Below, one piece after another: positions 9,588 to 52,906 of a DNA stretch of 64,000 nucleotides. The notes beneath the pieces are model-generated. The model made no database searches and was not told the origin of the DNA. It was given only the letters and a program-made list of their open reading frames with translations. Within the stretch, counting starts at the first letter, position 1; each line of letters starts with the position of its first letter. Both the position numbers and the translations under genes were made by a program. This stretch comes from an uncultured delta proteobacterium. GTDB taxonomy: Bacteria; Myxococcota_A; Polyangia; Polyangiales; Polyangiaceae. The stretch is from positions 128,001 through 192,000 of the forward strand of contig CAVQUB010000001.1 of NCBI GenBank assembly GCA_963716725.1, in the 5' to 3' direction.

Positions 9588-9749
9588 GATGGAGTGGCGA
9601 GCCCACTGCATAGCGCTTCGCTCACGGCGCTCGCGATGGCGGGAGGGGTCATCACGACCATCGCTCGCCACGCTGGCGCGTGCTGCGGCTGCCCGCCGCG
9701 CTCGTGGCGCGGGACATCGCCGAAGCGGTGCGTCGGGTGGGCGAGGCCC
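9588..9749 (+). pseudogene. DUF559-like endonuclease C-terminal remnant
   Basis: WRVLRLPAALVARDIAEAVRRVGEAL matches the 46252 remnant (GWRVLRLEAELVLREPEGAVERVREAL). Confidence 0.6.
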
Positions 9750-9798
9750 TCAGCCCTTCGCCCCCATCAACCGCGCCGCCTCGATCGCGCCATACGTA
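9750..9798 (-). repeat. 49-bp copy of the hemB 3' end
   Basis: TCAGCCCTTCGCCCCCATCAA...CGCCATACGTA matches 51929-51977 and encodes [15 protein letters not shown]. Confidence 0.92.
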
Positions 9799-9990
9799 TT
9801 GTCCTGCCTCCCCCGGTCGTTGCTCGCGGCGCTGCGCGCCGCTGTGCGCCGCCTGCCCCCTCCTTGTCCGGCAAGCGCCGCCAGCGGTCGAGAGCTACGA
9901 GCAGGTGGAGTTGCTCCGCGGCTGAGTCGCCGACACGACCGCCGCCGACGCTTGCGCGGACGGAGGGGGCGCGTTGATCCGGGACCGTGT
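9799..9990. repeat. Hairpin element segment A (begins TTGTCCTGCCTCCCCC)
   Basis: Near-identical to 45713-45931; paired arms GCCCCCTCC/GGAGGGGGC and GCAAGCG/CGCTTGC. Confidence 0.8.
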
Positions 9991-9994
9991 GAGC

Positions 9995-10546
9995 TGTCGC
10001 GGCTACTTCGCACATCCGCAACATGCAGTCCGTTCAGAACGGGGCTCCCGACCACGGCTCCGCGTCCCGTCGCCGCCGATGACCGCCCGATCGGGATGAG
10101 CTGACCAATCCCCCGGTGAGTTCGCCCGCGATCGAAATCCTGGCGCTACTCGATCAACAGTTCGAGCAGGTGTCGCTCGCCGAGTACGACGACCCTGGGA
10201 CGATCCTTGGAAGTACCCGGAGGGGTAAGTCCCAGAAGTGGGATGATGTGATCGAGGCAGTCGCGGCGCACGCTGCCCAGGAACCGCTCGCAGAACGCGT
10301 TGGCCTTCGGAGCTCGCACCGGCGTCTTCAAGACCTTCGTCCCGACACCGCGGGCGATGCGGTCGAACTCTCCGCCGTACTTGTCGTCCCGGTCTCGGAT
10401 CAAGAACCGAGGTCCCACACCGAGATCCGTTGCGTTCCGGAGTTGCTGCGAGACCCAAGTCGAGTCGGGGTTGTGGGGAACCGAGTCTCATCTCTTGCCG
10501 GGAAAGCGCAAGGATCACGCGACGCACTGGGTTTTCGCCACCCACA
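9995..10546 (-). mobile_element. Composite IS remnant: 'family B' right end with integrase-core fragment, joined to a 'family A' left end
   Basis: TGTCGCGGCTACTTCGCACATCCG at 9995 (compare 33993); PRFLIRDRDDKYG...ANAFCERFLGSVRRDCLDH; family A end at 10546. Confidence 0.78.
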
Positions 10547-10803
10547 GGGTGTCGCCGGTGAACGCAGAGATCCCGGTGAGCCGGACCGGCTACGAGCTCA
10601 GGCTCTGGCTGCCGGCATGGCGAAGAGCGCCGCTGAAGCCCAACGCTTCGAGGTCTGCGCGGGAGCGCCCACCGGCGGCGCGGCAACCTTGACACTCTCG
10701 TCGACGCCGCCCTATCGGCTCGTGAAATACCCGGGAGCTGAGGCCACCAACGACTTGGCCTTACAACTGCCGGGATCGGCCTCGTCGTGGTAGGCTTCGA
10801 GCG

Positions 10804-11461: not shown

Positions 11462-11617
11462 GCCCCCAATCGCACCCCACGACGAACACCGCTGGGCTCC
11501 GTCGCCGCTCGGGCGGTGGGCGGAGCGACCCGATGGGCGGCGAGGCGCCAGGCGCTGGGCTCGCACGCATCGTGGGCGTGAGCTCGAAGCGTGGGCGCGA
11601 CAAGCGTGCACCGCCGG

Positions 11618-11811
11618 CGCCTGTCACGCCTCCTGCGCCGTGAGTGGGCAAAGCCCGGCCGCAGCGCCGGACAGGAGTGGTGCTGCCTCCCCTCGCGTCG
11701 CTTCGCTCCGCGGTCCCCTCCAAGCCCGGTGCGCGCGATCGGAGGCGCCTTGCCAAGATCACTAGCGCCGTTTCGATGCTCGCGCGCACGCGGGCGGAGG
11801 GGACGCGTCGT
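11618..11811. repeat. Hairpin element segments C-D
   Basis: Matches 34582-34780, 28630-28752 and 32199-32335; GTCCCCTCC...GGAGGGGAC long stem. Confidence 0.8.
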
Positions 11812-13386: not shown

Positions 13387-13832
13387 TCAGAGGTCGAGGT
13401 CGTGCGCCTCGACGGCCTGCGCTCCATCCATGATGAAGCGGAAGCGCGGCGCGGGGTCTTTGCCCATCGGCTCATTGAGGATGCGATCCGTCTCGAGCTC
13501 ACCCTCGATCGTCACGCGCAACGCGCGGCGGCGCTTCGGGTCGAGCGTTGTGACCTTGAGGTCGGCGGCGTCCATCTCGCCGAGGCCCTTGAAGCGGCTG
13601 ACGTCGGGTTTGACGTTCTTCGGGAGCGCCGCGAGTATCTTGTCCCTCTCCGCGTCGTCGAGCGCGAAGTAGGTCTCTTTGCCCGCGTCGATGCGGTAAA
13701 GCGGCGGCATCGCGATGAAGACGTGGCCGTTGCGGATGAGCGCCGGCAGCACGCGATAGAAGAACGTGAGCAGCAGCGTCGAGATGTGGCAGCCGTCGCT
13801 GTCGGCGTCCATCAGCAGAAAGATGCGGCCGC
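13387..13832 (-). pseudogene. C-terminal fragment of a type IIA topoisomerase B subunit (ParE/GyrB)
   Basis: [26 protein letters not shown] (TOPRIM), [13 protein letters not shown]; 5' end replaced by an IS remnant. Confidence 0.88.
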
Positions 13833-13970
13833 GGCGGCCTGGCGGGACCGCAGGAACGACAGGACGAAGTGGAGCAGCGCAAGGAGGACCGCAGGCACGG
13901 GGAACCGAGTCTCATCTCTTGCCGGGAAAGCGCAAGGATCACGCGAGGCGCTGGGTTTTCGCCACCCACA
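13833..13970 (-). mobile_element. IS family A left-end remnant
   Basis: GGGGAACCGAGTCTCATCTCTTGCCGGGAAAGCGCAAGG...GCCACCCACA, ending at 13970. Confidence 0.85.
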
Positions 13971-14062
13971 GGTGCTCCATGCCCGGTGGCGTCTTCTGCC
14001 TCGCAGTGACGGTCCGCAGGGGCAATCATTGCTCAGCCAGCCACCCGGACCTGCCTCTCGAT

Positions 14063-14125
14063 CTCCAACCGACACGCGCGTACCCTGAGCTCAGTGGGTT
14101 TTGGCAGATGGAATTTCCTACGCGC
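14063..14125 (+). repeat. Direct repeat, putative IS91/ISCR oriIS-like end, copy 1
   Basis: Same as 15339-15406; ends GGAATTTCCTACGC, resembling the ISCR oriIS GAACTTCCTATAC. Confidence 0.6.
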
Positions 14126-15008
14126 ATCTCTCGGATCCACGCGTACGCGCACCTCGGCCCATGATATCGTTGCCGCTGGAGCCGCGATGTCTCGGTCGAA
14201 GCGGAATCTTGCATGGTTACCACGCTCCCGGCGCGGCACCGCCGGGCTCGCTCCGGCAATTGCCCACGGGCTGGCGAGGTTGGGGACACTGACGCTGTTG
14301 GCGTCGAGCTTCGATTGTAGCGGTGCGACGCGGGGCGGGAACTCGAACGCCTCGTCCCTGGCAGCGGTCACTCAGCGACCGCTGCCAAACGTGCCCGTCG
14401 ACGCAAGGGGCCCCGAGACCGGAGCGGAACCCTCGCTCAGCGCCGACGCGGGGCGCTCGGACGCTTCCGGTTCCCCGGCCGGTGGTGACGCCGCGCTCGC
14501 TAACGGCGCCTCAGATTCAGCTGGGATCATCGAGTCCGAAGAGCCGCTCGACGAGACGCCGACACGGCCGAAAGGGCAGCGTTACCAACCGCGGGGCAAG
14601 TGTGTGAACCCGCAACGTCACGCCGCGGCGCGAGTGGCCCAATCGATCCGCGGCGCGAAGACCGACGACTTCCTCGACTTCGTCAACATCATTGGGAAGG
14701 CCGACCTCGACGGTGATGGCACCCCGGATCAGATGCGATCTGGCGGTGGGGCAAACATGACGGAAACCTACTTGATCTATGTGATGCGAGGAGGCTACGG
14801 ACACTTTGTCGGCAGTATCGACGTGAACGCGAGCCTCAGCGCCCTCGAGGGTTACAGCAACGGCCTGCGCAGCCTCGGGGGGTTCGCGGGGTGCCAGCCG
14901 GCATGCTGTGAAAAACTCATGTGGACCGAGCTTCGATATGACGGTCGTCAATACCGCGTCGAGGAACAGCAACTGCGGCGAGTCAACGACTGCTCGAGCC
15001 TCCCGTGA
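14094..15008 (+). CDS. Hypothetical secreted protein or lipoprotein
   Basis: Hydrophobic stretch ending in Cys; ADLDGDGTPD motif; true start is likely downstream of the repeat. Confidence 0.6.
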   Translation: MGFGRWNFLRASLGSTRTRTSAHDIVAAGAAMSRSKRNLAWLPRSRRGTAGLAPAIAHGLARLGTLTLLASSFDCSGATRGGNSNASSLAAVTQRPLPNVPVDARGPETGAEPSLSADAGRSDASGSPAGGDAALANGASDSAGIIESEEPLDETPTRPKGQRYQPRGKCVNPQRHAAARVAQSIRGAKTDDFLDFVNIIGKADLDGDGTPDQMRSGGGANMTETYLIYVMRGGYGHFVGSIDVNASLSALEGYSNGLRSLGGFAGCQPACCEKLMWTELRYDGRQYRVEEQQLRRVNDCSSLP

Positions 15009-15009
15009 C

Positions 15010-15406
15010 CAAGCTCATCCCGCGCTGAGCCGGCCGCGCGACCCTCACCAGTCGTTGGCTTCGAGCCAGTTGACGTCGTCGTCGCCCCCGCCTGATCGAC
15101 GAACCCATCGCCGAGGTGCGCGGCATCAGCATCCGCGCCGCTCAGGGCGTGGATCCGCCCGCGGCGATCAGCTCGAGCTGCTTGGCGAGAAGGACGACGC
15201 GCCGGTGCAGCGCAAACGATGGGCAATCTGCGTCGCGCGGCTGCGTGAGCAGCGACGCTCGTGACGCATGGGCGCAGTGCGCCAGACATCGCTCAGTTGA
15301 TGCCCGTCAACCCGGCGGCGGTCTCGTTGGCCGCCGCGCTCCAACCGACACGCGCGTACCGTACCCTGAGCTCGGTGGGTTTTGGCAGATGGAATTTCCT
15401 ACGCGC
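15010..15406 (+). mobile_element. IS91-like 3' remnant ending in oriIS-like repeat copy 2 (15339-15406)
   Basis: PALSRPRDP-like C-terminal tail; the repeat carries a duplicated GTACC. Confidence 0.5.
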
Positions 15407-15645
15407 CGCGCCCACGCCTCGTCGCAACCCCAAGCTCGCACCGCGAATCCCACCATCGCCGGAGATACTGCCGATGCTCGCCGACACCCCCCAACTGCCC
15501 CAGCTACCGGCTCCGACAATGCGCGACATCATGCGTCACGGCCGAGACCGAGGGCACGATCGCAAGGGCGTGAGCGAGAGCCGCAACGGAGCCGAGCCTT
15601 GCGGACAATTGACTCCTGGGTCAGGCGAGCCGAGCGTGGTCGGTA

Positions 15646-18258
15646 ATGACGCTCGGGTGTGAGCGGTTTACTAGCCTCGTGGAGCACGGTCACTTCATCG
15701 GTCTTCTCTCGGCATTGGGCTTGTCGTGCGCCCCATCATCAGCGCCGCGTGCCAGCGAGCCCGCGCCAGCGCGCGTTGCTGCGAGCCCCTGCGGCGCCGC
15801 CATCGAGCTGACGAAATCGCTGAGATCCGAGGGCCGTCTCGATCGCGCGGCTCGCACGCTCGAGCGCGTGATCCCGAGTTGCAACGGGTCCGAGCAGAGC
15901 GTCGCGCGCGCTCTCCAGCGCGAGGTTCTCGTCGAGCTCGGACCGGGTCCGGTATCGAAGGCCCAGCAGGCCGAGCCGCTCGCACCGCTGCGTGAGCCGG
16001 ACGCGGCCATGGTGAAGGGTGACGCGCAGGCGGCCCTCGCCGCGTACGAGAGCGCCTGGAAGAAGCAACAGTGGCATGCCCAGGCGCTGATCGGCGCGGG
16101 CTTCGCGGCTCGGATGCTGGGCAACGAGCGGCTCGCTCGCGCTCACTTCGACCGCGCGCTCACCGCGCTCGAGGCGCCGAACGGGGCGCGAGCGAGAGCG
16201 ACTCAGCTCCGAAACCCATTCGGGTCGCCTCCGGTGGTGAGCTTCAGCGCGCCGAACGAGTTCACCGGCGCCTCAATTCTCATGCGCCGCCATGGGCAGC
16301 GCTGGCTCCCCATGCAGATGCTCCCGGGCGGAGTTCACGGCTGGAGTCGGGGACTACAGGCAGCTCCGGCGGGTGACCGGCTTCGCTTGGTGGACCGGGA
16401 CGGCGTGGAAGTGATCACTCTCGACGGCTACACGAACTTCGTGGTCGCGTCCGACGACCAGCGCCTCGCAGCATGGTCGGACTCGAGGCAAGCGCTGTAC
16501 GATCTGCGAACCGGCAAGGTGATCGCCGAGCGTGCAGGCAAGGGCAGTCTCGCGTTCGGAGGAGCGGACGACAAGTGGCTGCTCGACACGGACGGTGGCG
16601 ACACGATCGTCCTCGACGGCCGATCGCTCGCCGAGCGGGTTCGAATTCGGGCGACGGAGCTGATTTTCCTCGACTCGCTCGAGCGCGTCGTGGCTCTCGT
16701 GCGCGACGCCGAGGGCCTCAGTTTCGCGCTGGAGCTCTGGGATCTCGGCAAGCGCGAGCGCATCAAGCGGTTTGCCGCGCGTGCGCAGGGAGATGGCATG
16801 TTCACCCACACCCTCGACGAGGAGAACAAGCGCTTCCTCTGGTGGGGAAGAGAGCTGGGCAGCCTCGATCTCGCGTCGGCGAATATCGCCATCCTCGGGC
16901 CTGCTCCGCACAACGGCGGGGACGGTGGCATTGCAGTAGAGGACGGTGGCAGGCGACTTTGCCTGGGATCCACTTTGCAGGGCTTCCGGATCTTGCCGAG
17001 CAAGCCCCGCCCCGGGTTCCGGCAGCGGTGCTATCGGAACTACCACACCAGGGGGCTCACCATCGCGGAGCTTCCGGAGCCCGCGAAAGGTCGCGCGCAC
17101 GTCGATCGCGCTCAGATGCTCACGGGCAGCTTTCTCATGGAAGACTACGAGGTCCTGAGCCCAGGCAGCGACTTGGTCGCGCGCCTGGAGCAGTCCTCTG
17201 CGAAGGAGCGCTACTTCGTCGCGATCTATTCGGTATCCACCGGAAAGCTCGTGCGCTTGCTGGACGTGGCCCCCGCCGGATCGGCAGCAGCGCCGGTGCT
17301 GCGTTTCTCCGCCGACGGCACTCACGTGCGGGCGAGGGGTTCGCAAGGTTCGCTCGTAGCCTGGGACATCCGGACCGGGGCTTCGAAGAGCGTCGAGGAA
17401 GAGGACGACCCGCCCGAGCGCTCGGAGCTGCCCGCTCAGCCCGCGAAACCCGAGGGCAGACTCCAATTCCGCGGAATGAGCTTCATTTGGAGCGGTAAGG
17501 CAGGGTGGTCTTGGTGGGATTTGGCCCGCGGGGTGCGCATCCACGGAGAGCGCCGCGGCTACGATGCGGTGCTGCTGTCTCCGGGTGGGCGCCGCGTCGG
17601 GCTCGTGGAACGAAAACGTCGGCCGCCAGACCACCGGGCGGCCTCGCTGACCGTGGTGGATGACACCGGAAAGTCCTCCCCGCCGCTCGCGGCGAGCGTC
17701 GACGGTCTCGAGTTTCGCCTGAGCGATGTGGGCCGGGTCGCGTGGTGGGGCACGGGTGGCAACTGGGTCGCGGATCTCGCAGCGCACGGCTGGCGCAAGC
17801 GGCAGATCGATTCGAAGGGCTACCCGGTCTTCATTTCTGCGGACGGCAAGTGGCTTGCGCTCGAGGGCCAGCATTACGTCGTCGAGAGCACCGACACCGG
17901 AGAAGTGGTCCCGTCGGGCCCGGCCTACAACGACTACGAGGTGTTCGTACGGGACTCCGACAAGACTCGATCTACCGACGGCAAGTGGTCCTTCGAAATG
18001 GAGCTCGGACGCACCGCAGCGGCCATCCGTCTCACTGCCACGGGCGAGGTCCGCGCCACAGTCCTGCCAACGGGTCCGGAGAGCGTGGTCGTGCTGCTCG
18101 ACGGCGGCGCCGTCGAGCGCCTCGGTCCGGCTGGACCGGCCGAGAACTTGGCCTGCGTCATCGGCAGCGGAATCGCGCCGTTCGAGGTCTGCGAGGAGCG
18201 CTTGCTCGTCCGGGGAGCGCTACCGAAGCTCGAGACCAAAACCTATCTCGATCCCTGA
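15646..18258 (+). CDS. Lipoprotein with TPR-like N-terminus and WD40-like propellers
   Basis: GLSC lipobox; LYDLRTGK, LWDLGK, FSADG, AWDIRTG repeats. Confidence 0.75.
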   Translation: MTLGCERFTSLVEHGHFIGLLSALGLSCAPSSAPRASEPAPARVAASPCGAAIELTKSLRSEGRLDRAARTLERVIPSCNGSEQSVARALQREVLVELGPGPVSKAQQAEPLAPLREPDAAMVKGDAQAALAAYESAWKKQQWHAQALIGAGFAARMLGNERLARAHFDRALTALEAPNGARARATQLRNPFGSPPVVSFSAPNEFTGASILMRRHGQRWLPMQMLPGGVHGWSRGLQAAPAGDRLRLVDRDGVEVITLDGYTNFVVASDDQRLAAWSDSRQALYDLRTGKVIAERAGKGSLAFGGADDKWLLDTDGGDTIVLDGRSLAERVRIRATELIFLDSLERVVALVRDAEGLSFALELWDLGKRERIKRFAARAQGDGMFTHTLDEENKRFLWWGRELGSLDLASANIAILGPAPHNGGDGGIAVEDGGRRLCLGSTLQGFRILPSKPRPGFRQRCYRNYHTRGLTIAELPEPAKGRAHVDRAQMLTGSFLMEDYEVLSPGSDLVARLEQSSAKERYFVAIYSVSTGKLVRLLDVAPAGSAAAPVLRFSADGTHVRARGSQGSLVAWDIRTGASKSVEEEDDPPERSELPAQPAKPEGRLQFRGMSFIWSGKAGWSWWDLARGVRIHGERRGYDAVLLSPGGRRVGLVERKRRPPDHRAASLTVVDDTGKSSPPLAASVDGLEFRLSDVGRVAWWGTGGNWVADLAAHGWRKRQIDSKGYPVFISADGKWLALEGQHYVVESTDTGEVVPSGPAYNDYEVFVRDSDKTRSTDGKWSFEMELGRTAAAIRLTATGEVRATVLPTGPESVVVLLDGGAVERLGPAGPAENLACVIGSGIAPFEVCEERLLVRGALPKLETKTYLDP

Positions 18259-33421: not shown

Positions 33422-33451
33422 TCCGAATTCAACCTCGGCATCGGTCGGCGC

Positions 33452-34830: not shown

Positions 34831-35053
34831 CGAGGCCACTCACTTCGATGACGGCATCGTGAGCTTCCGAGCCGAAGGCACGGCGTGGTCACAGCTCTCC
34901 CGACGAGTTTGGGTTTTCGCCACCCATAGGAACTGCGCTCGCGCTCGTGGCCTCCGCGCAGGCCCTCCGACGTCGGTGGTGGCGGTGGGGGGATTTGCAC
35001 CCCGGTGCCTTCTGGCACAGAGTGGCTCCGGCCGAACGATGGGGAGGGCGAAG

Positions 35054-35746: not shown

Positions 35747-35922
35747 TGTAGTTTCCCACGCTCTTCCCCCGCCTGAATCCCGGGCATTTTCGTGATGCCC
35801 TCGGGGTGGTTTCCCGGAGTGCGGTGGTCGAGTGGGCGTGGCGAGGTGGTGGCAGAAAGAGAGCGGCCCGACGGAGACGTGGATCTCCGCCGGGCCTTGT
35901 GGACCGTCGCCGGGCGCTGGGC

Positions 35923-38123: not shown

Positions 38124-38174
38124 CGGAGTTCTCTTTCGGTGTCGGCCCGGGTCCGTCCCGGGCACACCAACCCG

Positions 38175-38852
38175 CTATCGGTCCCGCCGAGGAGGGTCCG
38201 GCCCCGTTTCGTGTGGGGTCGGCTCTCGCGATGCTTGCCGCGCTCGCCCTCGCGCCCGCAGTCCGACCGGCGCTGGCATGGCGGCCAGGTGAATGGCCGC
38301 GGCCGACCGCAGCGCCACGAGCGCATCCGACACCCCGAGTCGTTGCCGCACCGCGCCGAGCGTCGCCGGGCAGCCCGTGAGCGCCGGCACCAGCGTCACT
38401 GCCGCCACGAGCGCCGCGTGGACAGCAACACGCCGCCGCCGGAGCCACCGCAGCGCGCTTGGAAGCGTCACCGCGTCCGCTGCGATCGCGGGGCGCACCT
38501 TCTCGGCGACCGCCTCCAGACTCTTGGCGCTCTCGGCCACCTCGACGGCCCGCTCGACCTCCTCGAGCGTGCCCGACAGTCGGGAAGCCAGAAAATCAGG
38601 CAAAAGGCTGATAGTCACCCGAGCCCGCGGGCACCAGAACCGGGCGACGCGGACGCCGACGGGGCGGACCCGACCGTAGCTCCCGCGCCCCGCGAGACCG
38701 CAGCCGCCCTCCGGGTGCAGCGGGCACCGCTCCAAACTTGCGGCCCGCCACGCCTGCTCGGTAACGTACCGCTCGCTGGTGAGGGTCGTCTCGTAACGGA
38801 CAACCAATCCTTCGCTGGCCGGGTCCGTGCGGGTGCTACCGCGACGGACCAA
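38175..38852 (-). CDS. Transposon accessory protein (DUF6431-like)
   Basis: Differs from copy 1 at H>R (GHGSY/GRGSY) and G>S. Confidence 0.65.
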   Translation of the reverse strand: MVRRGSTRTDPASEGLVVRYETTLTSERYVTEQAWRAASLERCPLHPEGGCGLAGRGSYGRVRPVGVRVARFWCPRARVTISLLPDFLASRLSGTLEEVERAVEVAESAKSLEAVAEKVRPAIAADAVTLPSALRWLRRRRVAVHAALVAAVTLVPALTGCPATLGAVRQRLGVSDALVALRSAAAIHLAAMPAPVGLRARGRARQASREPTPHETGPDPPRRDR

Positions 38853-39397
38853 CCTTCTCCGGCGATCAGCTTTCCGCGGATCAGCCTCTCAGGAAAAAAG
38901 AACGGCGAAGCTCTCCGGAGTCCGAACCCGGCTCACCCGAAACAACGAGCGCCCAGACCGACACCACGACCGCGGGGGATCACGACGGAGGGTGACGGCC
39001 TACACCCCCCATACCCTCCGACGCGCCCTGCGACCACCTCCCGCGCCGAAATCTCTCCTCGGCGCCGCTGCCCGCTGCGCGCTGCCCGCTGCCGCCCACA
39101 TCCTCCAGGCCACCACCGACGCGGGCTTGTAACACCTACGCGCTCGCTCGGTTGGTCAGCTGTGCCATCGTCACCCCTCCGGTTTCGGTGTTCTGACCTC
39201 TCACCTCTCAGCGGTAAGTTCGGAGCGGGCTCGGGTCAACGCGCGGAATCGACAAATGTCGATCGAGCTCCCTCGCGATGGGCAGCCCGCGACGCCTTCC
39301 GGAAAGGGCTTCGTGCCGCGAGTCGCGGCCCTGCAGGACCCCCACAACCGCTTGCGCGCGTTTCATGCCGGGCGTAGCCTGCATGGGGGAGGGCACA

Positions 39398-43557: not shown

Positions 43558-43644
43558 GCGCCGCGACCGCCATGCCTGTGCCCCCCGGTCCTCGGTTGTG
43601 GCGACGGCATCGGCTCCCCGGGGACGATGATCACGTGCACCTCG

Positions 43645-45089
43645 CAGCTGCGGCGCCGAACATCTTGGAGTCGGCGCGATGCAATTGCACGCCGCGCAGC
43701 TGCGGCGCCGAACCTTCTGGAGCTGACGCTGTGCAACTGCGCTCGCCAGAACTCCCGGTCGAAAGCAGCGTACGCTTCATGCGGCGACGTCCTCCTCGTG
43801 TTGACGGGAGCACCGGTCGCACGCTTGTTGACGATTGTGGTCCAGCCGCCGCTTGCGCGCCTCTTGCCGCCGAGCAGCGAGCTCGTCAGGCACTCGAGCC
43901 CCGCGCCCGAAGTACATCTCGTCCGGGGTCTGCCCGTCGAACGCACTGTGGGGCATCCGCTCGTTGTGCTCGACCACGTAGAACTCCACGAGCCTCTTGA
44001 CGGTCGCGATGCTGTCGAGTTGGTGCAGGAACAGCCACTGAGTTTTGAGGGAGCGCCACCACGATTCGATCATCGAGTTCGAGAAGCTCACGTCGATCTG
44101 CGCGATGACGCGGCGAAGGACACCTTCACTGAAGAGCGGGTCCACGCTGGCGTTGAGGTTCTCGACGCCGGAGTCCATGTAGACCTCTGCTGTCATCGGC
44201 CCCTCCAGGTTGCTCGCCGCCCTCACAAGCACGTCGCGGGTGTTCATGGGATCGAGTCGGTCGGCGATCGTCCAGGCGAGGATTCTCCGAGAGAAGTTGT
44301 CGATGACCGCGTGCAAGTGCGCTTTCGTTCCATCGAGCAGCTTGATGATCGTGACATCCACGTGCCACGCGGCGTTCGGCGCGAGCGCGCGCACGCCGAC
44401 CTTGGGTTTCGGTGGGTAGAGACGGAGTCTCGGCCGCCGCCAGCCGTAGCGTCGGATGAGCTTGCCCCAGTTTGCCGGGTGAGCGAGGACTTCACCGACG
44501 CGCTGGGCGTGCAAGGCAAGCGCTCGGATGGACATGTGGCGATGTTCCTTGGACTGAACCAGGCTGCCGATTGCCTCGACCTCCGGCTGGGTCAGTCGCT
44601 GCGGCACAGTGCGCGGACAGCTTGGGCGGTCGTCGAGATCGCATGCTTTTTCGGCTCGAAACCAGACGTGATTGCGCGCTCGGGAGAGGCGGAGCACTCG
44701 GAGCGCCGCGGACAAGGCCATGCAGAAGCAGTCGAACAACTGTGATGAGCACCGCGGTCCGCCGCTCGAGCACGACGACACGAGCGCGAAGCTCGCCCTC
44801 CGCGCCAAGGTTCGGCTCCAGACAGACGACGCTCCCCATGCCTCGCCGGATCCAGCTCCGAACTGTCGAGCGCGGGATCTCGAACTCCGGAAACAGCCCC
44901 GGATCCCCGGTCTCGGCGATCTGCTGCTTGATGCGGTGGTCGTACGTACGGCGGGAGCGAGTGCTCATGTCGTCAGCAGAGCATGCACGGGCGCGTCAGT
45001 ATCGGCGCGCGGAGAGTCGGAAAAAAGCGAAGGTTTTCGCGGTGTGCAATTGCATCGTGACGGCTACAGAATGTTCAGCGCCGTAGCTG
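43645..45089 (-). mobile_element. IS family C (integrase-core DDE, IS3/IS481-like), full-length ends but broken transposase
   Basis: ~50-bp imperfect IRs CAGCT(A/G)CGGCGC(T/C)GAACAT; one end tandemly doubled (43645 and 43697); ORFs 44492..44968 and 43777..44808 with WHVDVT, IDNFSR, NSMIE. Confidence 0.85.
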
Positions 45090-45256
45090 GGCTTCTGCGC
45101 ACACCAACAGGTTCGGCTTCCAGCGTGCTCGCCGTTGGGCCCGGGGCTTGCTCCCGACTAGCAGTGCCCGGAGCAAGAACGCCCGTGGTTACCGCCTTCC
45201 AGTTCCACGAATTGGAGATCGGATCCCTCAGCATCAGCAGCGAGGGTGGTGCCCGC

Positions 45257-45400
45257 CTGACGCGTCGTGCGCTGCCCCACCGAGGAAGCGAGGAAGCTCC
45301 GTGGCTGGGCATCAGGGCCAGTGCGTTCGGCGCCCTCGTTCGTCGCCTGCACGTCGTCGGTCGGCACATCGCCGAGGCGGTCCGCAGGTGCGGGCCGCGC
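45257..45400 (+). pseudogene. DUF559-like endonuclease remnant (internally deleted)
   Basis: SEEAPWLGIRASAFGALVRRLHVVGRHIA resembles the DUF559 SE..LW..IR...FRRQ..VG..I N-terminus, joined to an IAEAVRR C-terminal piece. Confidence 0.6.
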
Positions 45401-46251
<851 letters not shown>

Positions 46252-46452
46252 GTGGTCGACCTCGCGGTGCGAGCTGCGAAGCTGGCCATCGAAGCCGATG
46301 GCGCGAGTCACGCGGGGCGCGCCGCCGCCGATGCCCGCCGCGACCGCAAGCTCGCGCGGCTCGGGTGGCGCGTGCTTCGGCTCGAGGCGGAGCTCGTGCT
46401 CCGCGAGCCGGAGGGCGCGGTCGAGCGGGTGCGGGAGGCGCTCAAGCGGTGA
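46252..46452 (+). pseudogene. DUF559 (Vsr-like) endonuclease C-terminal half
   Basis: VDL...KLAIEADGASH...DARRDRKLARLGWRVLRL. Confidence 0.82.
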
Positions 46453-46631: not shown

Positions 46632-49600
46632 TCAGAACGCGCAGCGGGGGTCGCCATTCTTCGCGAACGCGCTCGGAGCAACCGTGCAGCCGGGAGTCGC
46701 GGCCTTGGGCACGCTCACGCTCGCGGTCGCCTGGCTCACGTTGCCGGCGGCGTCGCGGGCCTCGAGGGTCACCGTGTAGATCCGGCCAGAGCCGGTCCCG
46801 AGGCGGGACGCGCGCAGGCAGGTGCTGTCGGCGTCGAAACCGAGGTCTGCTGGCTCGTTGCTGGTGATTCCCACGATGCGCACCTGCGGATGCGGATCGC
46901 AGGCGTCACTCACGGCGTACTGGATGGTCGAACCGAGCTCGTCCCCCGTCGGGGACTTCCCAAGGTCGTAGGCGACGAGCTTGCCGTTGGGTGGCCAGAG
47001 GCAGGCGGGTGCGATCGTCAACGAACCGAGCACCGGGGGCGTCAGATCCGGCAGGCAGTCGAATCGAGTCCCGCCCGCGAGCACCAGTTTTCCGGCGTAC
47101 CGCGGGGGAGCCTGGGTGCGCGGCACGAACGCTGGTCGCGCCTTCGTGATCACGGCACCGAAGAGCGCATCGCGGCGAGGTGGCGCTTCGACGAGCTCGA
47201 TGACTTTGTCAGCAGCCAGTTCATTGCCGATGCCGAGTGTCGCGGAGTCCTTGACGCGGATGATCGCGGACCACCCGGTTTGTGGCAGCTCCGGCGCTCC
47301 GGTGCTGGGTGCGACATCCTCCCAGGCCGCCCCGATCACGATGACGCCGTTGCTGGTGCCTCCGACGCTCCAGCCAAAGCGATCGCCCGGAGACAGCGGG
47401 TTCGGGTTCGGCGGGGTCTCGCCTTGGTCGGGGATCGGCGCGGTCCCTTGCCGCCACAGCGCTTGCCCTGCCGCCGTGATGCCGTTCGGGCCGCCGCGCA
47501 GCACGTGCGCTGCACCCTTCGTGGTGTCCTCGTTGAACGCGCCGATGATGAGGTCGTCGTAGCGATCGAGGTCGGCGCGCGTGATCGCGAGATGCGCGCC
47601 AAACCCGTCATCCGGCTCACTCGCGTCCTTGATGGTCGTCCCGTCCGCGGCAGGGCCGCCCTGGACCAAATGCTGGCTCCCGGTGAGCCGCAACCCATCG
47701 CTGCTCCCGTACAGGACGTAGACCGCGCCGTTGCTGATGGAACCGCTCCCCTCGCCCGAGTGGACCGCGAGATCGACGCACGGACGACCGGCGTGGGAGT
47801 CGCCGTTGAAATTGCCGGCGGCGAGCTCACCGCCGCCGAAGAAGCGGCTGTTCGGAGGAGTTCCACCGATCAGAGCCAGATCGACGCGCTGGCGCAGGTT
47901 CTTGTCGAGGCCTGCCGCGCTTCCATAGAGGATCATCACCGCGCCGGCTCCAAGAATCACGCCCGCGTCGGGGTCGGCGGGCGTCGCCGCTTCCAACGGG
48001 TCGCCCACCGCGAGATCCTCGAAGCCGTCGCAGTTGAAGTCCCCCGTGGTCAACCCTCCGTTGATCGCTGGCGGCGAGGCCAGACCGAGGTCGGCGCTGG
48101 TGAAGATCGGCTCATTGCCGGTTGCCTGGAGACCAACGCCCTGGACTCCGTACATGATCTGCACGTCGGTCCCGGTGCGGATTGCCAGGTCATCCCTAGA
48201 ATCGCCGTTGAAGTCCCCAGCCGCGAGATCCTGGCCGAGACCCGCATCCGTGGCTGGAGCGCCCGAGAGCGGACCGCGATCGAACGCGACCGCCGTGAAC
48301 AAGCTCGGGGAGCTGGGCTCGTGGCGCAACGTCGCTATGATGCCTGCGCTCGACAAGCCCGAGACCGTGACGCCCGGAGCGCCGATCACCAGATCCTGGC
48401 GATCCGGGCTTCCATCGAAGTTTCCCCACGCGAGCGCGCGGCCGAACAAGTCACCGAGCGTCGATTTGTAGGTGAACGCGGCGGGGGAGCCGGCCGCGAG
48501 AAAGTCTAGCGTCACGGCTTGGACTTCCAGACCGTCCCAGACGACGTTCGTCAGGTTGTCTGTCGCCAGGCTGACCTGGCCGATCACCGGCTGGATGCCA
48601 ACCCCGCCCTGGCAGAACTTCTCGACACCGGCATCGGCGTCGGTGCCGGCATCTTCGCCAGCGTCGGCGCCGGCGCCGGCCCCTGCGTCCGGTGGATACG
48701 CGCACGTGCCTCCGGCGCAGCACTGCGCGTCGAGCGTGCAGGCCTGGCCGTTGGCCTTGCAGTCATAGATGCCAGGCGCCGAGATCGCGAAGGCCTCCTC
48801 GTCGCCGGGCCCATACCAGTTGAAGCCGCGTGGGACGAACTGCGCAGGCACGGTGAGCCCAACTCCTGACTTGCCCAGGAACACGTCTTCGCTCCCATCA
48901 AATCGGACGGCTGCGGTGTCGTCGATGCTGTCGCCGTCGAACCGCCCGACGGTGTAGTACTCGTACGGCCCCGCTGGCGTCCACGCGGCCGGGTTGTTCG
49001 AGAGCGTGAAGCTCGACGAGAACGAGTTCGGCGAGGTCCCGTTGAAGTAGAGAGGTAGCGCAGCGAGCACGCCGCCAATCGTCGAGACGATGTCCGCGTC
49101 ACCGTCACCGTCGAAATCGCCGTGGAACATGCAGCCGACATCCGCCGATACCGTTGGGAATGGCGTGTCGAGGAGGAATTGCTCCGTGCCGTTGTTGAAC
49201 GTCGCAGCGAGCTGGAGGTTGCCGAGAGGCGAGCTGCGGATCCCGATGGAATCGTCGGCTTGCCCATCACCGTCGAGGTCGCACGGAGTCAAGCTGACTC
49301 GCTTGTGCAAGCGGCAGCGCAACCAATTGCGGAACCCCGGCGCCGCGGAATAGTGCCCGAATGCCGGGGCAGGTGGGCCAGCATCATTGCCCAAGCGCGT
49401 GGGATCGCCTTCTTTGTAGATGCCGACGACGTCCCCGGCCACCCCGGTCGTGTGCTCGATGCACGGTCCGCCGGAGTCCCCGCCGACCGGCATCGCGGCA
49501 TAGGCACTGCTGTCTGGCTCGTACACCGTCGGAGTCGGTGTCACCTCGCCCCCGCGGCTCACCGCGAACATCGTGTCGGTGCGCTGGAGCGACGGAAACT

Positions 49601-50315
49601 TCGTCACCAATGGGTGCGGGTACTCCAGGACGGTGAAATCCGCCTTGCGCAACTGCCCGATAGTGGTCGCTCCACCCAGTGGTGCGCTGGCGGCCATGCC
49701 ATAGCAGGTCACCTTCTTCTGGTAGAAAGCCGAGGTCGGTTTCTGCGTGACCGCACGCTCGTAGAGACTGCCGATCCCGTTCACGGGGAGAGTCCCGAAG
49801 TTCATGATCGCGGCGACGTCTTGCCCGCGGTTATTGGCAAAATAGGAATCGTCCGAGCCAATGGGTGACACGTATCCTGGCGGGAACTTCGCGCCACAGC
49901 CCTCCTTCTTCTTCTTGGGGTCAGGAATCGAGGAGTCGCCGCACGAGACGAGTCTCTGCTGAACGCCACTGGCATCCGGCATCCTGATGCGCAGGTAGTT
50001 TGGCGCCGCGCCCTGGTTGGCCAAGCACGTCTTCTTGGCGAGCGTGTAGTCGGCGACGTGACCCGCGGTCAGGATGACGTCGTTCGCAACCAGCACACCC
50101 GTTCCCAGCGAGCAGCCGACCGGGTCGTTCTGGTTGATCACGTGCTCCAGCCACACGATCCCGAATTGACTTGCGACCGGGACCGCCGTGCCGCCGTAGA
50201 GCGCAGACGAGCCCTTGTTCGCAGGTTCATCTCGCGTGTCGCCACACGCGAAAGCCGTCAGCCCGATGCAAACAAACAGGGCGCTCGGGATGACGCGCCA
50301 GAAAGTGCTCCCCAT
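46632..50315 (-). CDS. Lipoprotein: trypsin-like protease + FG-GAP/integrin-alpha repeats + C-terminal Ig-like domain
   Basis: AFAC lipobox; LTAGH, GQDVA, GDSGGP triad; FGRALAWGNFDG, GDFNGD, DLVIGAP repeats; CLWPPN...GRIYTV. Confidence 0.88.
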   Translation of the reverse strand: MGSTFWRVIPSALFVCIGLTAFACGDTRDEPANKGSSALYGGTAVPVASQFGIVWLEHVINQNDPVGCSLGTGVLVANDVILTAGHVADYTLAKKTCLANQGAAPNYLRIRMPDASGVQQRLVSCGDSSIPDPKKKKEGCGAKFPPGYVSPIGSDDSYFANNRGQDVAAIMNFGTLPVNGIGSLYERAVTQKPTSAFYQKKVTCYGMAASAPLGGATTIGQLRKADFTVLEYPHPLVTKFPSLQRTDTMFAVSRGGEVTPTPTVYEPDSSAYAAMPVGGDSGGPCIEHTTGVAGDVVGIYKEGDPTRLGNDAGPPAPAFGHYSAAPGFRNWLRCRLHKRVSLTPCDLDGDGQADDSIGIRSSPLGNLQLAATFNNGTEQFLLDTPFPTVSADVGCMFHGDFDGDGDADIVSTIGGVLAALPLYFNGTSPNSFSSSFTLSNNPAAWTPAGPYEYYTVGRFDGDSIDDTAAVRFDGSEDVFLGKSGVGLTVPAQFVPRGFNWYGPGDEEAFAISAPGIYDCKANGQACTLDAQCCAGGTCAYPPDAGAGAGADAGEDAGTDADAGVEKFCQGGVGIQPVIGQVSLATDNLTNVVWDGLEVQAVTLDFLAAGSPAAFTYKSTLGDLFGRALAWGNFDGSPDRQDLVIGAPGVTVSGLSSAGIIATLRHEPSSPSLFTAVAFDRGPLSGAPATDAGLGQDLAAGDFNGDSRDDLAIRTGTDVQIMYGVQGVGLQATGNEPIFTSADLGLASPPAINGGLTTGDFNCDGFEDLAVGDPLEAATPADPDAGVILGAGAVMILYGSAAGLDKNLRQRVDLALIGGTPPNSRFFGGGELAAGNFNGDSHAGRPCVDLAVHSGEGSGSISNGAVYVLYGSSDGLRLTGSQHLVQGGPAADGTTIKDASEPDDGFGAHLAITRADLDRYDDLIIGAFNEDTTKGAAHVLRGGPNGITAAGQALWRQGTAPIPDQGETPPNPNPLSPGDRFGWSVGGTSNGVIVIGAAWEDVAPSTGAPELPQTGWSAIIRVKDSATLGIGNELAADKVIELVEAPPRRDALFGAVITKARPAFVPRTQAPPRYAGKLVLAGGTRFDCLPDLTPPVLGSLTIAPACLWPPNGKLVAYDLGKSPTGDELGSTIQYAVSDACDPHPQVRIVGITSNEPADLGFDADSTCLRASRLGTGSGRIYTVTLEARDAAGNVSQATASVSVPKAATPGCTVAPSAFAKNGDPRCAF

Positions 50316-50361
50316 GACAACATGCTTCGCATTTTTTTTTTCGCGTGTCACGCTGCGTTTG

Positions 50362-51597
50362 ATGAAGGTGCGCTGTTGCACGTCGGGTCGGTCGAGCGGT
50401 CGCCTGGGTGCGAGAGTGTGGTTGGCCGCGTTGCTCACGCTCGCCACGAGCTGCACCACCAGCTCGACGACGCCGACTGGCCACCCGCCGCGACCGACTG
50501 CGCCACCGTCGGCGTCCGCGCAGCCGACTGCGCCGCGCCACGCGCTTCGCGATACCCGAAGGGGTGGAGCCACGTGCCCGAAGGCCGCACCCGGACCGTA
50601 TCCCGCACTCAGCCGCAGCTTTCATCAGATCGCGTTGCCTGCCGAGGTCGCTTTCGAGCAGCTCGTCGGTTGGGACAATCGCGCGTGGCTGTTGTCTGGC
50701 GAGCGCCTGTTCGTGCACGACGGGAACACCATTGTCAGCGAGGTCCAGCTTTGCCCCGGCGCGGTCCCGAGCCGCGGCAGGTCGTACGGTCTCAGCGTCG
50801 GGTTGTCTGGAGTGTTCGCGGTCGGAATGGACGTGCGAGAAGATTTTGTCCTGGCGCGCGTCGCGAAAGACGGGTCCGTGAGCTGCCAGAACGTGCCGCG
50901 ACTGCCGGCAGGCAGCCTGCAACTCACGCTCGCACTCTGGCCGCAGAAAGATGTGATCGCCCCGCTCCCGCGTGACACGCGACCGTATCTGGGCCTGTCA
51001 ATCCCGTCCCCGCCGGTTGGTTGGGAGGTCGGTTGGTTCCTCTCCACCAGTCCCCGCTCCGCGTGGTTGCAGATGCCCGAAGTTCTGAACCGACGCATGT
51101 GGACCTTCCACTTCGACGGGCAGCGCTGGGCGCCCGCACCGGACGTGCCCTTCGGCCTGGCCGGCGACATGTGGGAGGATCCCACGGGCGTGACTTGGGC
51201 CATCCCCGAGCGCGGACCACGGCTGGCTCTGTTGATCCCCGGCGAAGTCTACTCAAGCTGCCCGGCCAAATACGATGGGAAGACCTGGAGTCTGGTTCCA
51301 GCCGCGGGAGAGAACTGGTTTCAGCCGCATTGGCTGACCGGAACCGCGGCGGATGACATGTGGTTCGTGGGCAGAAAGATCGTATTGCAGTGGGACGGCG
51401 GGCAGTGGCGGGTCGAGAGCTTCGAGGAGGACCTGGAGCGCCGCAGGCTGGTCGGGGCGTCGTTCGAGAGCCAGCCCTTCATGGACCAGTCGGGCTCCCT
51501 GTGGCTTCTGGGCAGGGATCATGCAGACGGAAAGCAGAAGCTCTATCGGACCGATCCGAAGCCGCCCAATGCTCCGCGAGGAAAGCCACCGGGCTGA
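50362..51597 (+). CDS. Hypothetical lipoprotein (propeller-like)
   Basis: ATSC lipobox; HFDGQRW, KYDGKTW, QWDGGQW repeats. Start uncertain. Confidence 0.65.
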   Translation: MKVRCCTSGRSSGRLGARVWLAALLTLATSCTTSSTTPTGHPPRPTAPPSASAQPTAPRHALRDTRRGGATCPKAAPGPYPALSRSFHQIALPAEVAFEQLVGWDNRAWLLSGERLFVHDGNTIVSEVQLCPGAVPSRGRSYGLSVGLSGVFAVGMDVREDFVLARVAKDGSVSCQNVPRLPAGSLQLTLALWPQKDVIAPLPRDTRPYLGLSIPSPPVGWEVGWFLSTSPRSAWLQMPEVLNRRMWTFHFDGQRWAPAPDVPFGLAGDMWEDPTGVTWAIPERGPRLALLIPGEVYSSCPAKYDGKTWSLVPAAGENWFQPHWLTGTAADDMWFVGRKIVLQWDGGQWRVESFEEDLERRRLVGASFESQPFMDQSGSLWLLGRDHADGKQKLYRTDPKPPNAPRGKPPG

Positions 51598-51685
51598 GGC
51601 GCCAAGGGCCAGTGCCGTTCACTGGGCGGTCCGACGCGAGGTTGGGCGGCGCTTTCGTGCGTAGTTGCTCATCTTGATCTTCACG

Positions 51686-51928
51686 CAGCTGCGGCGCTGA
51701 ACATTCTGTAGCCATCACGATGCAATTGCGCGAGGCGAAAACATTCGCCTTTTTCCGACTCTACGCGCGCCGATACTGACGCGCCCGTGCGTGCTCTGCT
51801 CACCACATGAACAGCCGCTCCGGCCGCGCCTACGACCACCGGATCAAGGAGCAACTCGTACGGACCAGAAACCCGGCCCTGTTCCCGGAGCTCGGCATCC
51901 CGCGATCGACAGCGGAGCGCGGCGGGGC
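51686..51928 (+). mobile_element. IS family C left-end remnant abutting the hemB stop
   Basis: Same junction as at 28332 and 31903; RAYDHRIKEQ N-terminus. Confidence 0.85.
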
Positions 51929-52906
51929 TCAGCCCTTCGCCCCCATCAACCTCGCCGCCTCGATCGCGCCATACGTAAAAATAATATCCGCGCCCGCTCT
52001 CCGCAGGCACAGCAAGCTCTCGAGCAGGCACCGGTCGAACTCCATCCAGCCGTTCTGCGCGGCGGCCTTGAGCATCGCGTATTCGCCGCTCACGTGATAC
52101 GCGGCGACGGGCAGCTCGGAGATCTCGGATACCGCGCGCACCACGTCCGCGTAAGGCAGCCCCGGCTTGACCATCAACCAGTCCGCGCCCTCCTCTTCGT
52201 CCAGGCGCACTTCGCGCAAGCATTCGCGGATGTTGGCTGGGTCCATCTGGTACGTCTTCTTGTCTCCGGCGCGTGGGGCCGAATCCAGGGCGTCGCGGAA
52301 GGGGCCGTAGAAGCCCGAGGCGTACTTCACGCAGTAGCTGCAGATCAGCACGTCGGTGTGGCCGGCCTCGTCCAAGGCCGCGCGGATGGCGCCGACGCGG
52401 CCGTCCATCATGTCGCTGGGAGCCACGACGTCGGCGCCGGCGGCGGCCTGGGCGACAGCCATCTTCGCCAGGAGCGGGACCGTCTCGTCGTTGTCGATGA
52501 GCCCGTCGATGACCACGCCGTCGTGGCCGTCCGACGAATACGGGTCCAGGGCGACGTCGGTGATCACCACCAGCTCCGGCAGCGCGGCCTTGAGCGCGCG
52601 GACGGCGCGCTGGAGCAGGCCGGAGGCGTTCAGGCTCTCGGTGCCGCGCTGGTTCTTCAACGCGTCGGTGAGGGCGGGGAAGAGCGCGACCGCGGGCACG
52701 CCGAGCTCGAACGCTTCGCGAGATTTTTGCACCAGGAGCTCGAGGTCGAGGCGCGCGTGGCCCGGCATGCTCGCGATGGGATGCGCGCCGGGACCTTCGT
52801 GGACGAAGAGCGGCAGGACCAGGTGCTCCGGTCCGAGCGCGGTCTCGCGCACGAGCCCTCGGATCCCGGCGCTCACTCGGTTACGTCGCGGTCGGTTCAT
52901 CGGCAT
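51929..52906 (-). CDS. hemB: Porphobilinogen synthase (delta-aminolevulinate dehydratase)
   Basis: DVALDPYSSDGHDG, APSDMMDGRV, KYASGFYGPFRDA, YQMDPAN, MVKPG, YHVSGEY. Confidence 0.97.
   Translation of the reverse strand: MPMNRPRRNRVSAGIRGLVRETALGPEHLVLPLFVHEGPGAHPIASMPGHARLDLELLVQKSREAFELGVPAVALFPALTDALKNQRGTESLNASGLLQRAVRALKAALPELVVITDVALDPYSSDGHDGVVIDGLIDNDETVPLLAKMAVAQAAAGADVVAPSDMMDGRVGAIRAALDEAGHTDVLICSYCVKYASGFYGPFRDALDSAPRAGDKKTYQMDPANIRECLREVRLDEEEGADWLMVKPGLPYADVVRAVSEISELPVAAYHVSGEYAMLKAAAQNGWMEFDRCLLESLLCLRRAGADIIFTYGAIEAARLMGAKG

Follow-up and report, generated by a model that had tools for sequence, protein, structure and literature searches.

Downstream of hemB, the gene for delta-aminolevulinic acid dehydratase, an uncultured delta proteobacterium of the family Polyangiaceae carries an array of accessory DNA in which dead copies of the hemB 3' end recur, each fused to the terminus of a hairpin-rich repeat (HR). 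The window analysed here is a stretch of 64,000 nucleotides (nt) from the draft genome G000 (7.9 Mb, 67.8% G+C, 35 contigs, 84% complete), positions 128001-192000 of contig C1; coordinates are those of the window unless a contig is named. HR is the 5' part of a dispersed module of ~0.7 kb, here called E0, in which it is followed by a conserved leader and a gene for a Vsr-like nuclease of the DUF559 family. Each hemB tail is the scar of a duplication with one end at the HR terminus and the other at a variable downstream point; the tails are neither att sites nor target duplications made on insertion. We place about even confidence in reading the whole array as a tandem duplication that has a specific break at the HR terminus as its anchor and was later filled with insertion sequences (IS) and accessory genes. 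The process is not specific to hemB, and it is neither integron-like site-specific insertion nor an integrase att duplication.

hemB and its displaced 3' tails

The intact gene, the displaced tails and the sequences that adjoin them are the following.

51929-52906, minus strand: hemB, intact (Pfam PF00490 ALAD, E = 3.8e-131); its last 49 nt (51929-51977) are the repeated segment
45401-45712, minus strand: displaced hemB copy b, of 312 nt and with 92.5% identity to the native end; HR-A adjoins it at hemB position 312
32144-32192, minus strand: displaced hemB copy c, 49 nt, 1 mismatch; the block 31901-32311 around it is 96.6% identical to 28330-28742
28575-28623, minus strand: displaced hemB copy d, 49 nt, 1 mismatch; IS-end remnant on the left, HR-B on the right
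9750-9798, minus strand: displaced hemB copy e, 49 nt, 1 mismatch; DUF559 remnant on the left, HR-A on the right
51684-51928, no strand assigned: IS-end remnant abutting the stop codon of native hemB
31901-32143, no strand assigned: IS-end remnant abutting copy c
28330-28574, no strand assigned: IS-end remnant abutting the stop codon of copy d
45354-45400, plus strand: short DUF559 3'-end remnant before copy b, with 82% nucleotide identity to 9702-9749 only
9620-9749, plus strand: C-terminal remnant of DUF559 that meets the stop codon of copy e tail-to-tail (tblastn E = 3e-5; junction sequence)
45713-46049, plus strand: HR-A of unit A; it shares 90% identity with its counterpart at C1:118572-118902, left of the window
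32193-32387, plus strand: HR-B of unit B
28624-28760, plus strand: HR-B, ~130 nt, with a long hairpin (GTCCCCTCC...GGAGGGGAC)
9799-9994, plus strand: HR-A, hairpin-rich 5' end of the element, with the terminus TTGTCC-TGCCTCCCC

The terminal 49-mer of hemB, stop codon included, matches at 9750, 28575, 32144, 45401 and 51929 with 0-3 mismatches, while 0 of 100 dinucleotide shuffles contained any match to it, which confirms the recurrence described in the initial annotation. A genome-wide BLAST with this 49-mer returned six matches, all six on C1 (C1:118516-179977), the sixth of which (C1:118516-118564, window -9484 to -9436) lies ~9.5 kb to the left of the window. The array extends beyond the left edge of the window and comprises at least five units over at least 61 kb, the fifth (unit E) running from C1:118566 to window position 9749. 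Copy b scores as an ALAD C-terminus (Pfam, E = 1.6e-38). The only full copy of hemB in the genome is that at 51929-52906, in keeping with the earlier proposal that the array was built at the 3' end of a gene that stayed intact.

On their right, the displaced copies continue into a T-rich hexamer, TTGTCC (TTTTGT after the 312-nt copy), and then into TGCCTCCCC; the arrangement of six nucleotides followed by this sequence, which had been proposed for every displaced copy, was found at the junctions. On their left, either a DUF559 remnant or an IS end had been proposed. The IS ends stand, and so does the DUF559 remnant at 9620-9749, but 45354-45400 shows likeness at the nucleotide level only and gave no protein-level DUF559 match by tblastn. 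The three IS-end remnants (~245 nt) are 95.5-96.9% alike among themselves; their likeness to the IS at 43640-45093, at its inverted end, is 83%.

The hemB breakpoint varies from joint to joint. It lies at 49 nt in copies c, d and e, at 50 nt in the copy left of the window and at 312 nt in copy b; among congeners it lies at 51 and 321 nt in genome G001 and at 51 nt in genome G002. The 312-nt piece is nearest to the hemB of its own genome (92.8%, against 81-87% to congeners), and the G001 piece is 97.3% identical to G001 hemB. Because the displaced pieces are closest to the hemB of their own genome, the duplications arose within the lineage.

Displaced hemB pieces are preceded by the 3' end of the element's own DUF559 gene. 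Since the displaced copy carries this end before the hemB piece, joints of the type DUF559 3' end - hemB 3' end / HR are head-to-tail duplication joints and not insertion joints, with the HR terminus fixed and the other breakpoint variable. A long target-site duplication formed on insertion was considered as well and was dropped for those joints that contain the element's own 3' end.

The hairpin repeat and module E0

BLAST against the genome, suggested earlier as a check, found the 49-mer confined to the hemB locus on C1, but HR is not so confined and has 24 motif matches genome-wide. It occurs as three sequence types that have in common the terminus TGCCYCCCC, a small hairpin and a long hairpin with the base GTCCCCYCC...GGRGGGGAC. 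The terminus consists of a T-rich hexamer and TGCCYCCCC and lies ~35 nt before the conserved hairpin, in which 11 of the 26 predicted pairs stay paired through double changes (12-copy alignment, one copy being out of register). The single HR terminus has many unrelated left neighbours. In a MITE or another transposon with terminal inverted repeats, both ends would be conserved, a short target duplication of constant length would flank them, and empty sites would exist; in HR, conservation extends to the left end only. The right side of an HR-A segment with a Uma2 nuclease gene in G001 is unique and yielded no conserved right end, one possible 5-nt duplication (GTGAA) was seen there, and two HR-B copies contain the inverted pair TGCCTCCCC...GGGGAGGCT. 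A BLAST search with HR-B of 61 genomes of the family gave a match in four, two of them weak, BLAST being a weak tool for so fast-evolving a repeat.

Small Cys/Gly-rich open reading frames (ORFs; VTAPKQGFGQDASTGVKHGCGAGGCTY...) start 5-11 nt from the HR-B terminus at C5:11900-11978, C5:16640-16714, C8:400440-400515 and C8:408310-408388, and one copy among these loci has a 29-nt deletion that ends exactly at the HR terminus. The idea that HR is the upstream region (ribosome-binding site and spacer) of a leftward gene was rejected, a start codon with a long frame being present near the terminus in few of the 24 matches.

In seven of the nine DUF559 loci of G000 (counted by eye), HR lies ~355-390 nt upstream of the DUF559 start, and the conserved leader between them ends in a ribosome-binding site. 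E0 is present in many copies in most of the congeners searched. When 4.5 kb around one E0 locus was used as a query, the matches in congeners ran from the HR terminus (1841/1850) to the DUF559 stop (2521-2533); 23 of the 25 rows from G002 fell within 1841-2553, and G006, whose hemB site is empty, gave no E0 row. Judged by these alignments, E0 is a sharply bounded dispersed repeat, and the module data uphold the earlier suggestion that a DUF559/hairpin element is the common denominator of the array. Within the units, further traces of the module were located as follows.

46081-46452, plus strand: DUF559 pseudogene, in which a leader (46081-46251) is fused to an N-terminally deleted ORF (46252-46449; PF04480, E = 3.4e-14, profile positions 45-108 only)
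34648-34831, plus strand: HR-B inside unit B; DUF559 leader fragment 34443-34647 on the left, no hemB piece
11680-11811, plus strand: HR-B inside unit D; DUF559 leader fragment 11617-11679 on the left, no hemB piece

The E0 protein is ~120 amino acids long, belongs to PF04480 (DUF559), and matches the endonuclease-like structure PDB 3HRL with E = 3.4e-10; its fold is Vsr-like. Its closest relatives (57-66% identity) come from metagenome-assembled genomes (MAGs) labelled Polyangiaceae, Myxococcales or Myxococcota. The nuclease belongs to a family with proven homing members, although it has no DNA-binding domain like that of I-Bth0305I. Vsr itself nicks DNA, and a Vsr-like fold is also that of I-Bth0305I, an EDxHD homing endonuclease (PMC3239194); DUF559 has been linked to the EDxHD family (PMC9403480).

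A simple promoter and terminator scan of E0 gave 0 sites, and Rfam returned only chance-level rows for it (E 0.04-0.76, well short of the gathering score). The idea that E0 as a rule abuts a convergent stop codon tail-to-tail was also considered and dropped: such a stop lies within 3 nt in one of 24 rows and at 88-159 nt in eight, and the remaining 15 have no such frame within 200 nt. In the literature we found neither a DUF559/hairpin element nor a hemB-linked array described in bacteria, subscription journals and supplements being outside the scope of this search.

Head-to-tail joints at other genes

At least 10 of the 24 HR motif matches have as their immediate left neighbour a copy of a segment found further to the right in the same orientation (the left-flank BLAST used 22 HR matches, whereas the count refers to all 24). 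The genes concerned are these.

hemB: five HR joints (flank BLAST)
Guanylate cyclase gene: C12:99849-99929 equals C12:103053-103133, 81 of 81 nt identical (flank BLAST)
ArsA-like gene, C32: HR joint (flank BLAST)
RHS gene, C13: HR joint at an RHS orphan, C13:99716
A gene on C5: two HR joints (flank BLAST)

For the cyclase, a second copy of 208 nt (94% alike) lies behind a Uma2 gene on C12, and the breakpoint is at 81 nt in G000 and 108 nt in G001. The initial annotation had envisaged repeated site-directed insertion at hemB, which does not agree with breakpoints that vary between 49 and 321 nt, or with the joining of the same HR end to 3' pieces of other genes.

The signature also occurs around complete modules. 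In four of the 11 full E0 copies, the left flank consists of the E0 3' part together with the right flank up to a point J, which lies 81, ~167, 261 or ~1130 nt beyond the module. A short-word self-BLAST around nine DUF559 modules gave clear flanking direct repeats in only two. Two of three loci from other Myxococcota MAGs with enough upstream flank have an upstream copy of a downstream segment (94-95% identity), and an HR-like hairpin is present at two of the three; by the same crude test, seven loci from other phyla have neither.

The hemB locus in congeners

Comparison of the DNA downstream of hemB, likewise suggested earlier, showed the same type of joint in G001 and G002 and none in the stretches from G004, G005 and G006. 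Downstream of hemB, G001 has partial copies of the gene at three places; HR-A is joined to two of them (51 nt each) and HR-B to the third (positions 47-321). In this genome a Uma2 nuclease gene comes after HR-A, and AbiEi/AbiEii after HR-B. G002 has one 51-nt copy joined to HR-A, and the unit between this copy and hemB consists of HR-A, the leader and an intact DUF559 gene. Two tandem partial HR repeats of 305-312 nt precede the full module in G002. In G004, G005 and G006, neither a copy of the hemB 3' end nor HR was found in the hemB-downstream stretch examined, and in G004 and G005 other DNA lies downstream of hemB. The variable zone downstream of hemB in G000 measures ~125 kb, as hemB of G006 is ~390 nt from a conserved block whose G000 counterpart lies at C1:~54395.

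Just after its terminus, HR-A of G002 is interrupted by a group II intron (stretch 13961-15932, starting GTGCG, with an RVT_1 ORF at 14416-15849). A related reverse transcriptase (62% identity) occurs in contig C132 of G001, upstream of a DUF559-like ORF.

Such presence/absence polymorphism among congeners would be expected of a homing-type origin, in which DUF559 or Uma2 cuts a target near the 3' end of a gene and repair copies in the nuclease gene with a replacement 3' end while the old end is displaced, as for the free-standing homing endonuclease genes of fungal mitochondria. A nuclease gene does lie between the intact gene and a displaced piece at hemB, DUF559 in G002 and Uma2 in G001, and Uma2 lies between the cyclase gene and its 208-nt pseudo-end. 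Furthermore, hemB positions 49-51 recur in three species, and exactly at the 49-nt junction (51978-51992) native hemB of G000 has five synonymous AT-rich codons, ATT ATT TTT ACG TAT, where four congeners have ATC ATC TTC ACG TAC. For cob and atp6, duplicated C-termini separated by endonuclease ORFs have been described (PMC6279837). However, the constant feature is the HR terminus and not the target site, and the displaced pieces are of the same lineage rather than from a foreign donor. Homing would also not predict that the left copy contains the element's own 3' end. The E0 nuclease of ~120 amino acids is without a DNA-binding domain such as that of I-Bth0305I (PMC3239194). We regard a homing origin as unlikely.

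The congeners also bear on whether the joints are assembly artefacts, that is, collapsed or chimeric repeats. G000 is a draft of 35 contigs at 84% completeness, and public sequencing runs gave only short contigs over the region: 20 rows from seven studies match part of 27500-33500, and each of the four runs examined yielded short contigs only, with no evidence of circles (in two wastewater runs, the parts without cover are uninformative). On the other hand, the joints differ from each other by diagnostic substitutions, IS copies of 3.3 kb that are 100% alike are resolved inside contigs, and joints of this kind recur in two congeners that were assembled independently. The short public contigs themselves contain an IS-remnant/hemB joint and a hemB/HR-A joint. 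An artefact is scarcely credible in view of these data.

Searches for recombinases and attachment sites

Islands that lie between direct repeats of the 3' end of a gene bear the classical signature of an integrase. The array could in principle reflect tandem accretion of integrative islands by a tyrosine or serine integrase, lost or acting in trans, which recombined an attP carrying the hemB 3' end with an attB in hemB, so that the internal joints would be attP-like hybrids. The repeats match that signature, copies c, d and e share the base at which the 49-nt block stops, and a pair of tyrosine recombinase genes lies 15 kb beyond hemB (window 66758-68452). This pair accounts for the only two C1 entries (C1:194758-196452, beyond the 5' side of hemB) among the 19 genome matches to PF00589, but it is part of a repeat of 3.7 kb, C1:194468-198151 (window 66468-70151), whose copies on C31 and C33 are 99.5% alike.

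The initial annotation had seen no integrase, and the searches, now including DNA left of the window, agree. PF00589 has no match on C1 left of hemB or at the hemB arrays of G001 and G002, PF00239 has 0 matches in the 84% complete genome, and six-frame family searches found neither in the ~125 kb variable zone. Pfam scans of 57 ORFs in the window and 31 ORFs to its left returned transposases of rve-type IS and no integrase. Nor was a constant att core found: the blocks that adjoin the same HR arm measure 49, 50, 51, 312 and 321 nt for hemB and 81, 108 and 208 nt for the cyclase gene. The arm is joined to unrelated genes at variable points, and modules of 0.7 kb without any recombinase bear the same flanking repeats. 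No tRNA or tmRNA target and no Rfam family at gathering score were found in the window. Accretion of integrase islands is, on these grounds, very improbable.

The term integron-like, also used in the initial annotation, holds only loosely, in so far as unrelated cargo is arrayed between repeated joints, but not as regards an IntI or an attC-type core. No IntI-type recombinase was found beside the array. The cores of attC sites read RYYYAAC/GTTRRRY; compared by eye, the HR boundary hexamers TTGTCC, TTTTCC and TCTTCC do not fit, and HR lies 5' of the cargo.

A proposed break at the hairpin-repeat terminus

The base-precise terminus of HR recurs in many independent joints, and because of this we infer that it is cut site-specifically, most likely by a nick that the DUF559 enzyme places at the extruded hairpin. 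The DUF559 nickase is favoured as the cutter because it is the only protein of E0. As the partner breakpoint is variable, rejoining or read-through would be non-specific: a one-ended break, or a rolling-circle-like copy, would be rejoined further downstream.

An E0 lying convergent to hemB would seed an accretion zone behind the gene. With the HR 5' terminus as the fixed breakpoint, this terminus would form a head-to-tail joint with a point J that lies, at a variable distance, beyond the downstream side of the element. If J falls 49-51 or 312-321 nt inside hemB, the product would be a tandem duplication of the segment that runs from HR through the DUF559 3' end and from the hemB stop codon to J. 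Because a duplication of [HR...J] leaves the right copy continuous with the hemB body, hemB would stay intact and the gene would survive, while the left copy would become a dead hemB tail fused to the next HR. Repeated rounds, together with RecA-type exchange between joints of ~300-430 nt, could add, lose and swap units, and IS elements and accessory genes inserted later would inflate them.

Several observations weigh against this scheme. Copy b, the most diverged, sits nearest to hemB, which conflicts with simple proximal accretion, and three different left neighbours stop exactly at the hemB stop codon, for which the scheme has no explanation. It likewise fails to explain the AT-rich five-codon synonymous patch of native hemB, which is also present in the displaced 312-nt copy. 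Neighbouring units carry unrelated cargo, so that simple tandem duplication alone cannot yield the present array. In G001, one HR-A/Uma2 segment has the look of a plain insertion within a displaced copy of hemB, GTGAA being present at either side. There are cassettes headed by HR-B that have no DUF559 (those with S8 peptidase and AbiE in the present array, and that with AbiE in G001), and the head-to-tail signature is limited to the four of 11 full E0 copies mentioned above. Finally, DUF559 is represented in the hemB array only by a pseudogene and remnants; as the array's copy is a pseudogene, any DUF559 activity there must come in trans from eight other loci.

We propose, tentatively, that E0 may be a new kind of mobile element, whose sole protein, a predicted Vsr-like nickase of ~120 amino acids, would cut the foot of its own hairpin. 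The one-ended break or strand-displacement copy would be rejoined downstream and so amplify the element together with the tail of the neighbouring gene, and the joints would serve as landing pads for accessory genes. E0 would then be a recombinase-free accretion platform at the 3' ends of conserved genes in Polyangiaceae.

Cargo and insertion sequences

The division of the array within the window into four units with different cargo is as the initial annotation described it, judged by Pfam assignments of the ORFs, and the array additionally reaches left of the window. The cargo genes and IS elements are listed here.

46632-50459, minus strand: FG-GAP repeat protein of 1275 amino acids, cargo of unit A (PF01839, E = 5.5e-8)
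43640-45093, minus strand: IS with an rve-type transposase (IS481/IS3-like; Pfam rve, E = 2.2e-12); copies on C10 and C32 are 99% identical
35746-39004, minus strand: second copy of the 3259-nt IS, in unit B (repeat map, Pfam)
32768-33421, minus strand: AbiEii-type toxin gene, cargo of unit B (PF08843, E = 6.3e-10)
29028-31337, plus strand: S8 subtilase-like protein of 769 amino acids, cargo of unit C (PF00082, E = 4.4e-15)
13387-13812, minus strand: stray gyrB C-terminal fragment, unit D (PF00986, E = 3.5e-20)
1142-4400, plus strand: 3259-nt IS in unit E (rve, Mu-transposase C-terminus and AAA_22 ATPase); inverted twin at 35746-39004

The 3259-nt IS has TGTAG...CTACA ends and nine genome copies that are 99.8-100% identical, and hence was very recently active. 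The C-terminal ~94 amino acids of the S8 protein and the next ORF (30955-31851) resemble an array on contig C149 of G001, in which two shorter C-terminal fragments come after a protein of 796 amino acids and each is accompanied by a small, variable ORF, in the layout of a polymorphic toxin with orphans.

Joints c and d share a block of 413 nt, 96.6% alike, around the 3.2 kb S8-peptidase cargo. To judge from this block, the unit looks like a circle that entered by homology, or like a unit left by unequal exchange. The same observation is expected if no dedicated machinery was at work, that is, if a small number of old illegitimate joints arose first, and RecA-dependent unequal exchange, loop-out circles and Campbell re-entry then acted between the dispersed repeats (HR, IS ends and hemB pieces) of a recombination hot spot. 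The zone is indeed full of IS and gene debris, and the duplicated pieces are in-lineage. Such an account, however, leaves unexplained why an identical HR terminus serves as the breakpoint across genes, positions and genera, and why HR partial repeats stand in tandem. We consider it unlikely.

IS91-like and IS66 debris is present in the units, and the gyrB fragment adjoins IS91-type repeat remnants at 13971-14133 and 15080-15225. A stray urocanase 3' fragment at C1:113353-113580 likewise lies beside IS91-like repeat ends, and both fragments may be captured flanks. These remnants bring to mind rolling-circle transposases of the IS91/ISCR type, which could have acted in trans on HR as an origin-like end, with one-ended copying into hemB and homology-based re-entry, a route put forward for ISCR1 and complex class 1 integrons. 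The genome has 14 matches to PF04986 (Y2_Tnp), against none in any of 14 control genomes, and the combination of a fixed end, a variable end with captured flanking DNA and a partial duplication is the ISCR pattern (PMC3575428). Yet HR lies within 4 kb of only two of the 14 Y2_Tnp loci, E0 spreads without a linked transposase, and the right end of the IS91-like repeat is different and without HR, so that HR was rejected as the end of these repeats. We find their involvement improbable. Y2_Tnp elements lie at C8:414066-417546, C13:110109-114477 and C5:10130-11311 and include tandem partial copies ~1180 nt apart.

Elsewhere, a SpoVR-like gene at 59976-62130 contains an intein with a LAGLIDADG-type endonuclease domain (PF14528, E = 1.5e-19; PF14890, E = 2e-10), and a SpoVR piece of 76 amino acids lies just upstream. 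At C1:95573-97807, monomeric isocitrate dehydrogenase is encoded in two frames that cover profile positions 1-361 and 625-734 with a gap between them, possibly through a break, a frameshift or an insertion.

Relation to known systems and significance

In its workings the array comes closest to free-standing homing genes and to ISCR-type one-ended capture. In fungal mitochondria, a small nuclease ORF lies downstream of an intact essential gene (atp6, cob) and is followed by a dead 3'-end copy, and several copies can accumulate (PMC6279837); the E0 nuclease moreover has the same Vsr-like fold as the EDxHD homing endonucleases (PMC3239194). In contrast to the fungal genes, the E0 array resides on a bacterial chromosome, its DUF559 protein of ~120 amino acids has no recognisable DNA-binding domain, its constant breakpoint is in the element's own hairpin leader, its dead copy includes the element's 3' end, and its arrays span tens of kb with unrelated cargo.

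With the one-ended capture of ISCR1/IS91 and the complex class 1 integrons, the array shares a fixed end, a variable second end, the partial duplication of a conserved segment and the arraying of unrelated genes (PMC3575428). It differs in that no HUH transposase is linked to HR, that HR is unlike the end of the genome's IS91-like repeats, and that the only ORF of E0 encodes a PD-(D/E)xK-type nuclease. Integrons and attC clusters also hold unrelated, often single-gene cargo, including toxin-antitoxin genes, between hairpin repeats, whereas here there is no IntI, the HR terminus misfits the GTTRRRY core (compared by eye), each joint has a hemB piece, and the hairpin is 5' of the cargo. As in the orphan C-terminal modules of Rhs and polymorphic toxins, displaced 3' fragments pile up downstream of a full gene, and one HR joint is found at the RHS orphan C13:99716. 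Unlike such orphans, the hemB-type pieces are near-identical tails of housekeeping and signalling genes with no variable toxin tip, and their boundary is the HR terminus. We place the hemB array in neither the homing-gene nor the ISCR class; it is also not an integron or an integrase island.

For annotation, it matters that dead 3' gene tails adjoining HR are scars, not genes. The covarying conserved hairpin and the base-precise breakpoint provide a defined biochemical substrate. If the proposed mechanism is true, a nuclease-only selfish module would build tens of kb of accessory DNA beside an essential gene with no need of an integrase, a known type of transposase or a tRNA target, and the pattern of an endonuclease with a duplicated gene tail, described from mitochondria, would extend to bacterial chromosomes. 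It would also give a concrete and testable origin for some of the hypervariable hot spots that lie downstream of core genes.

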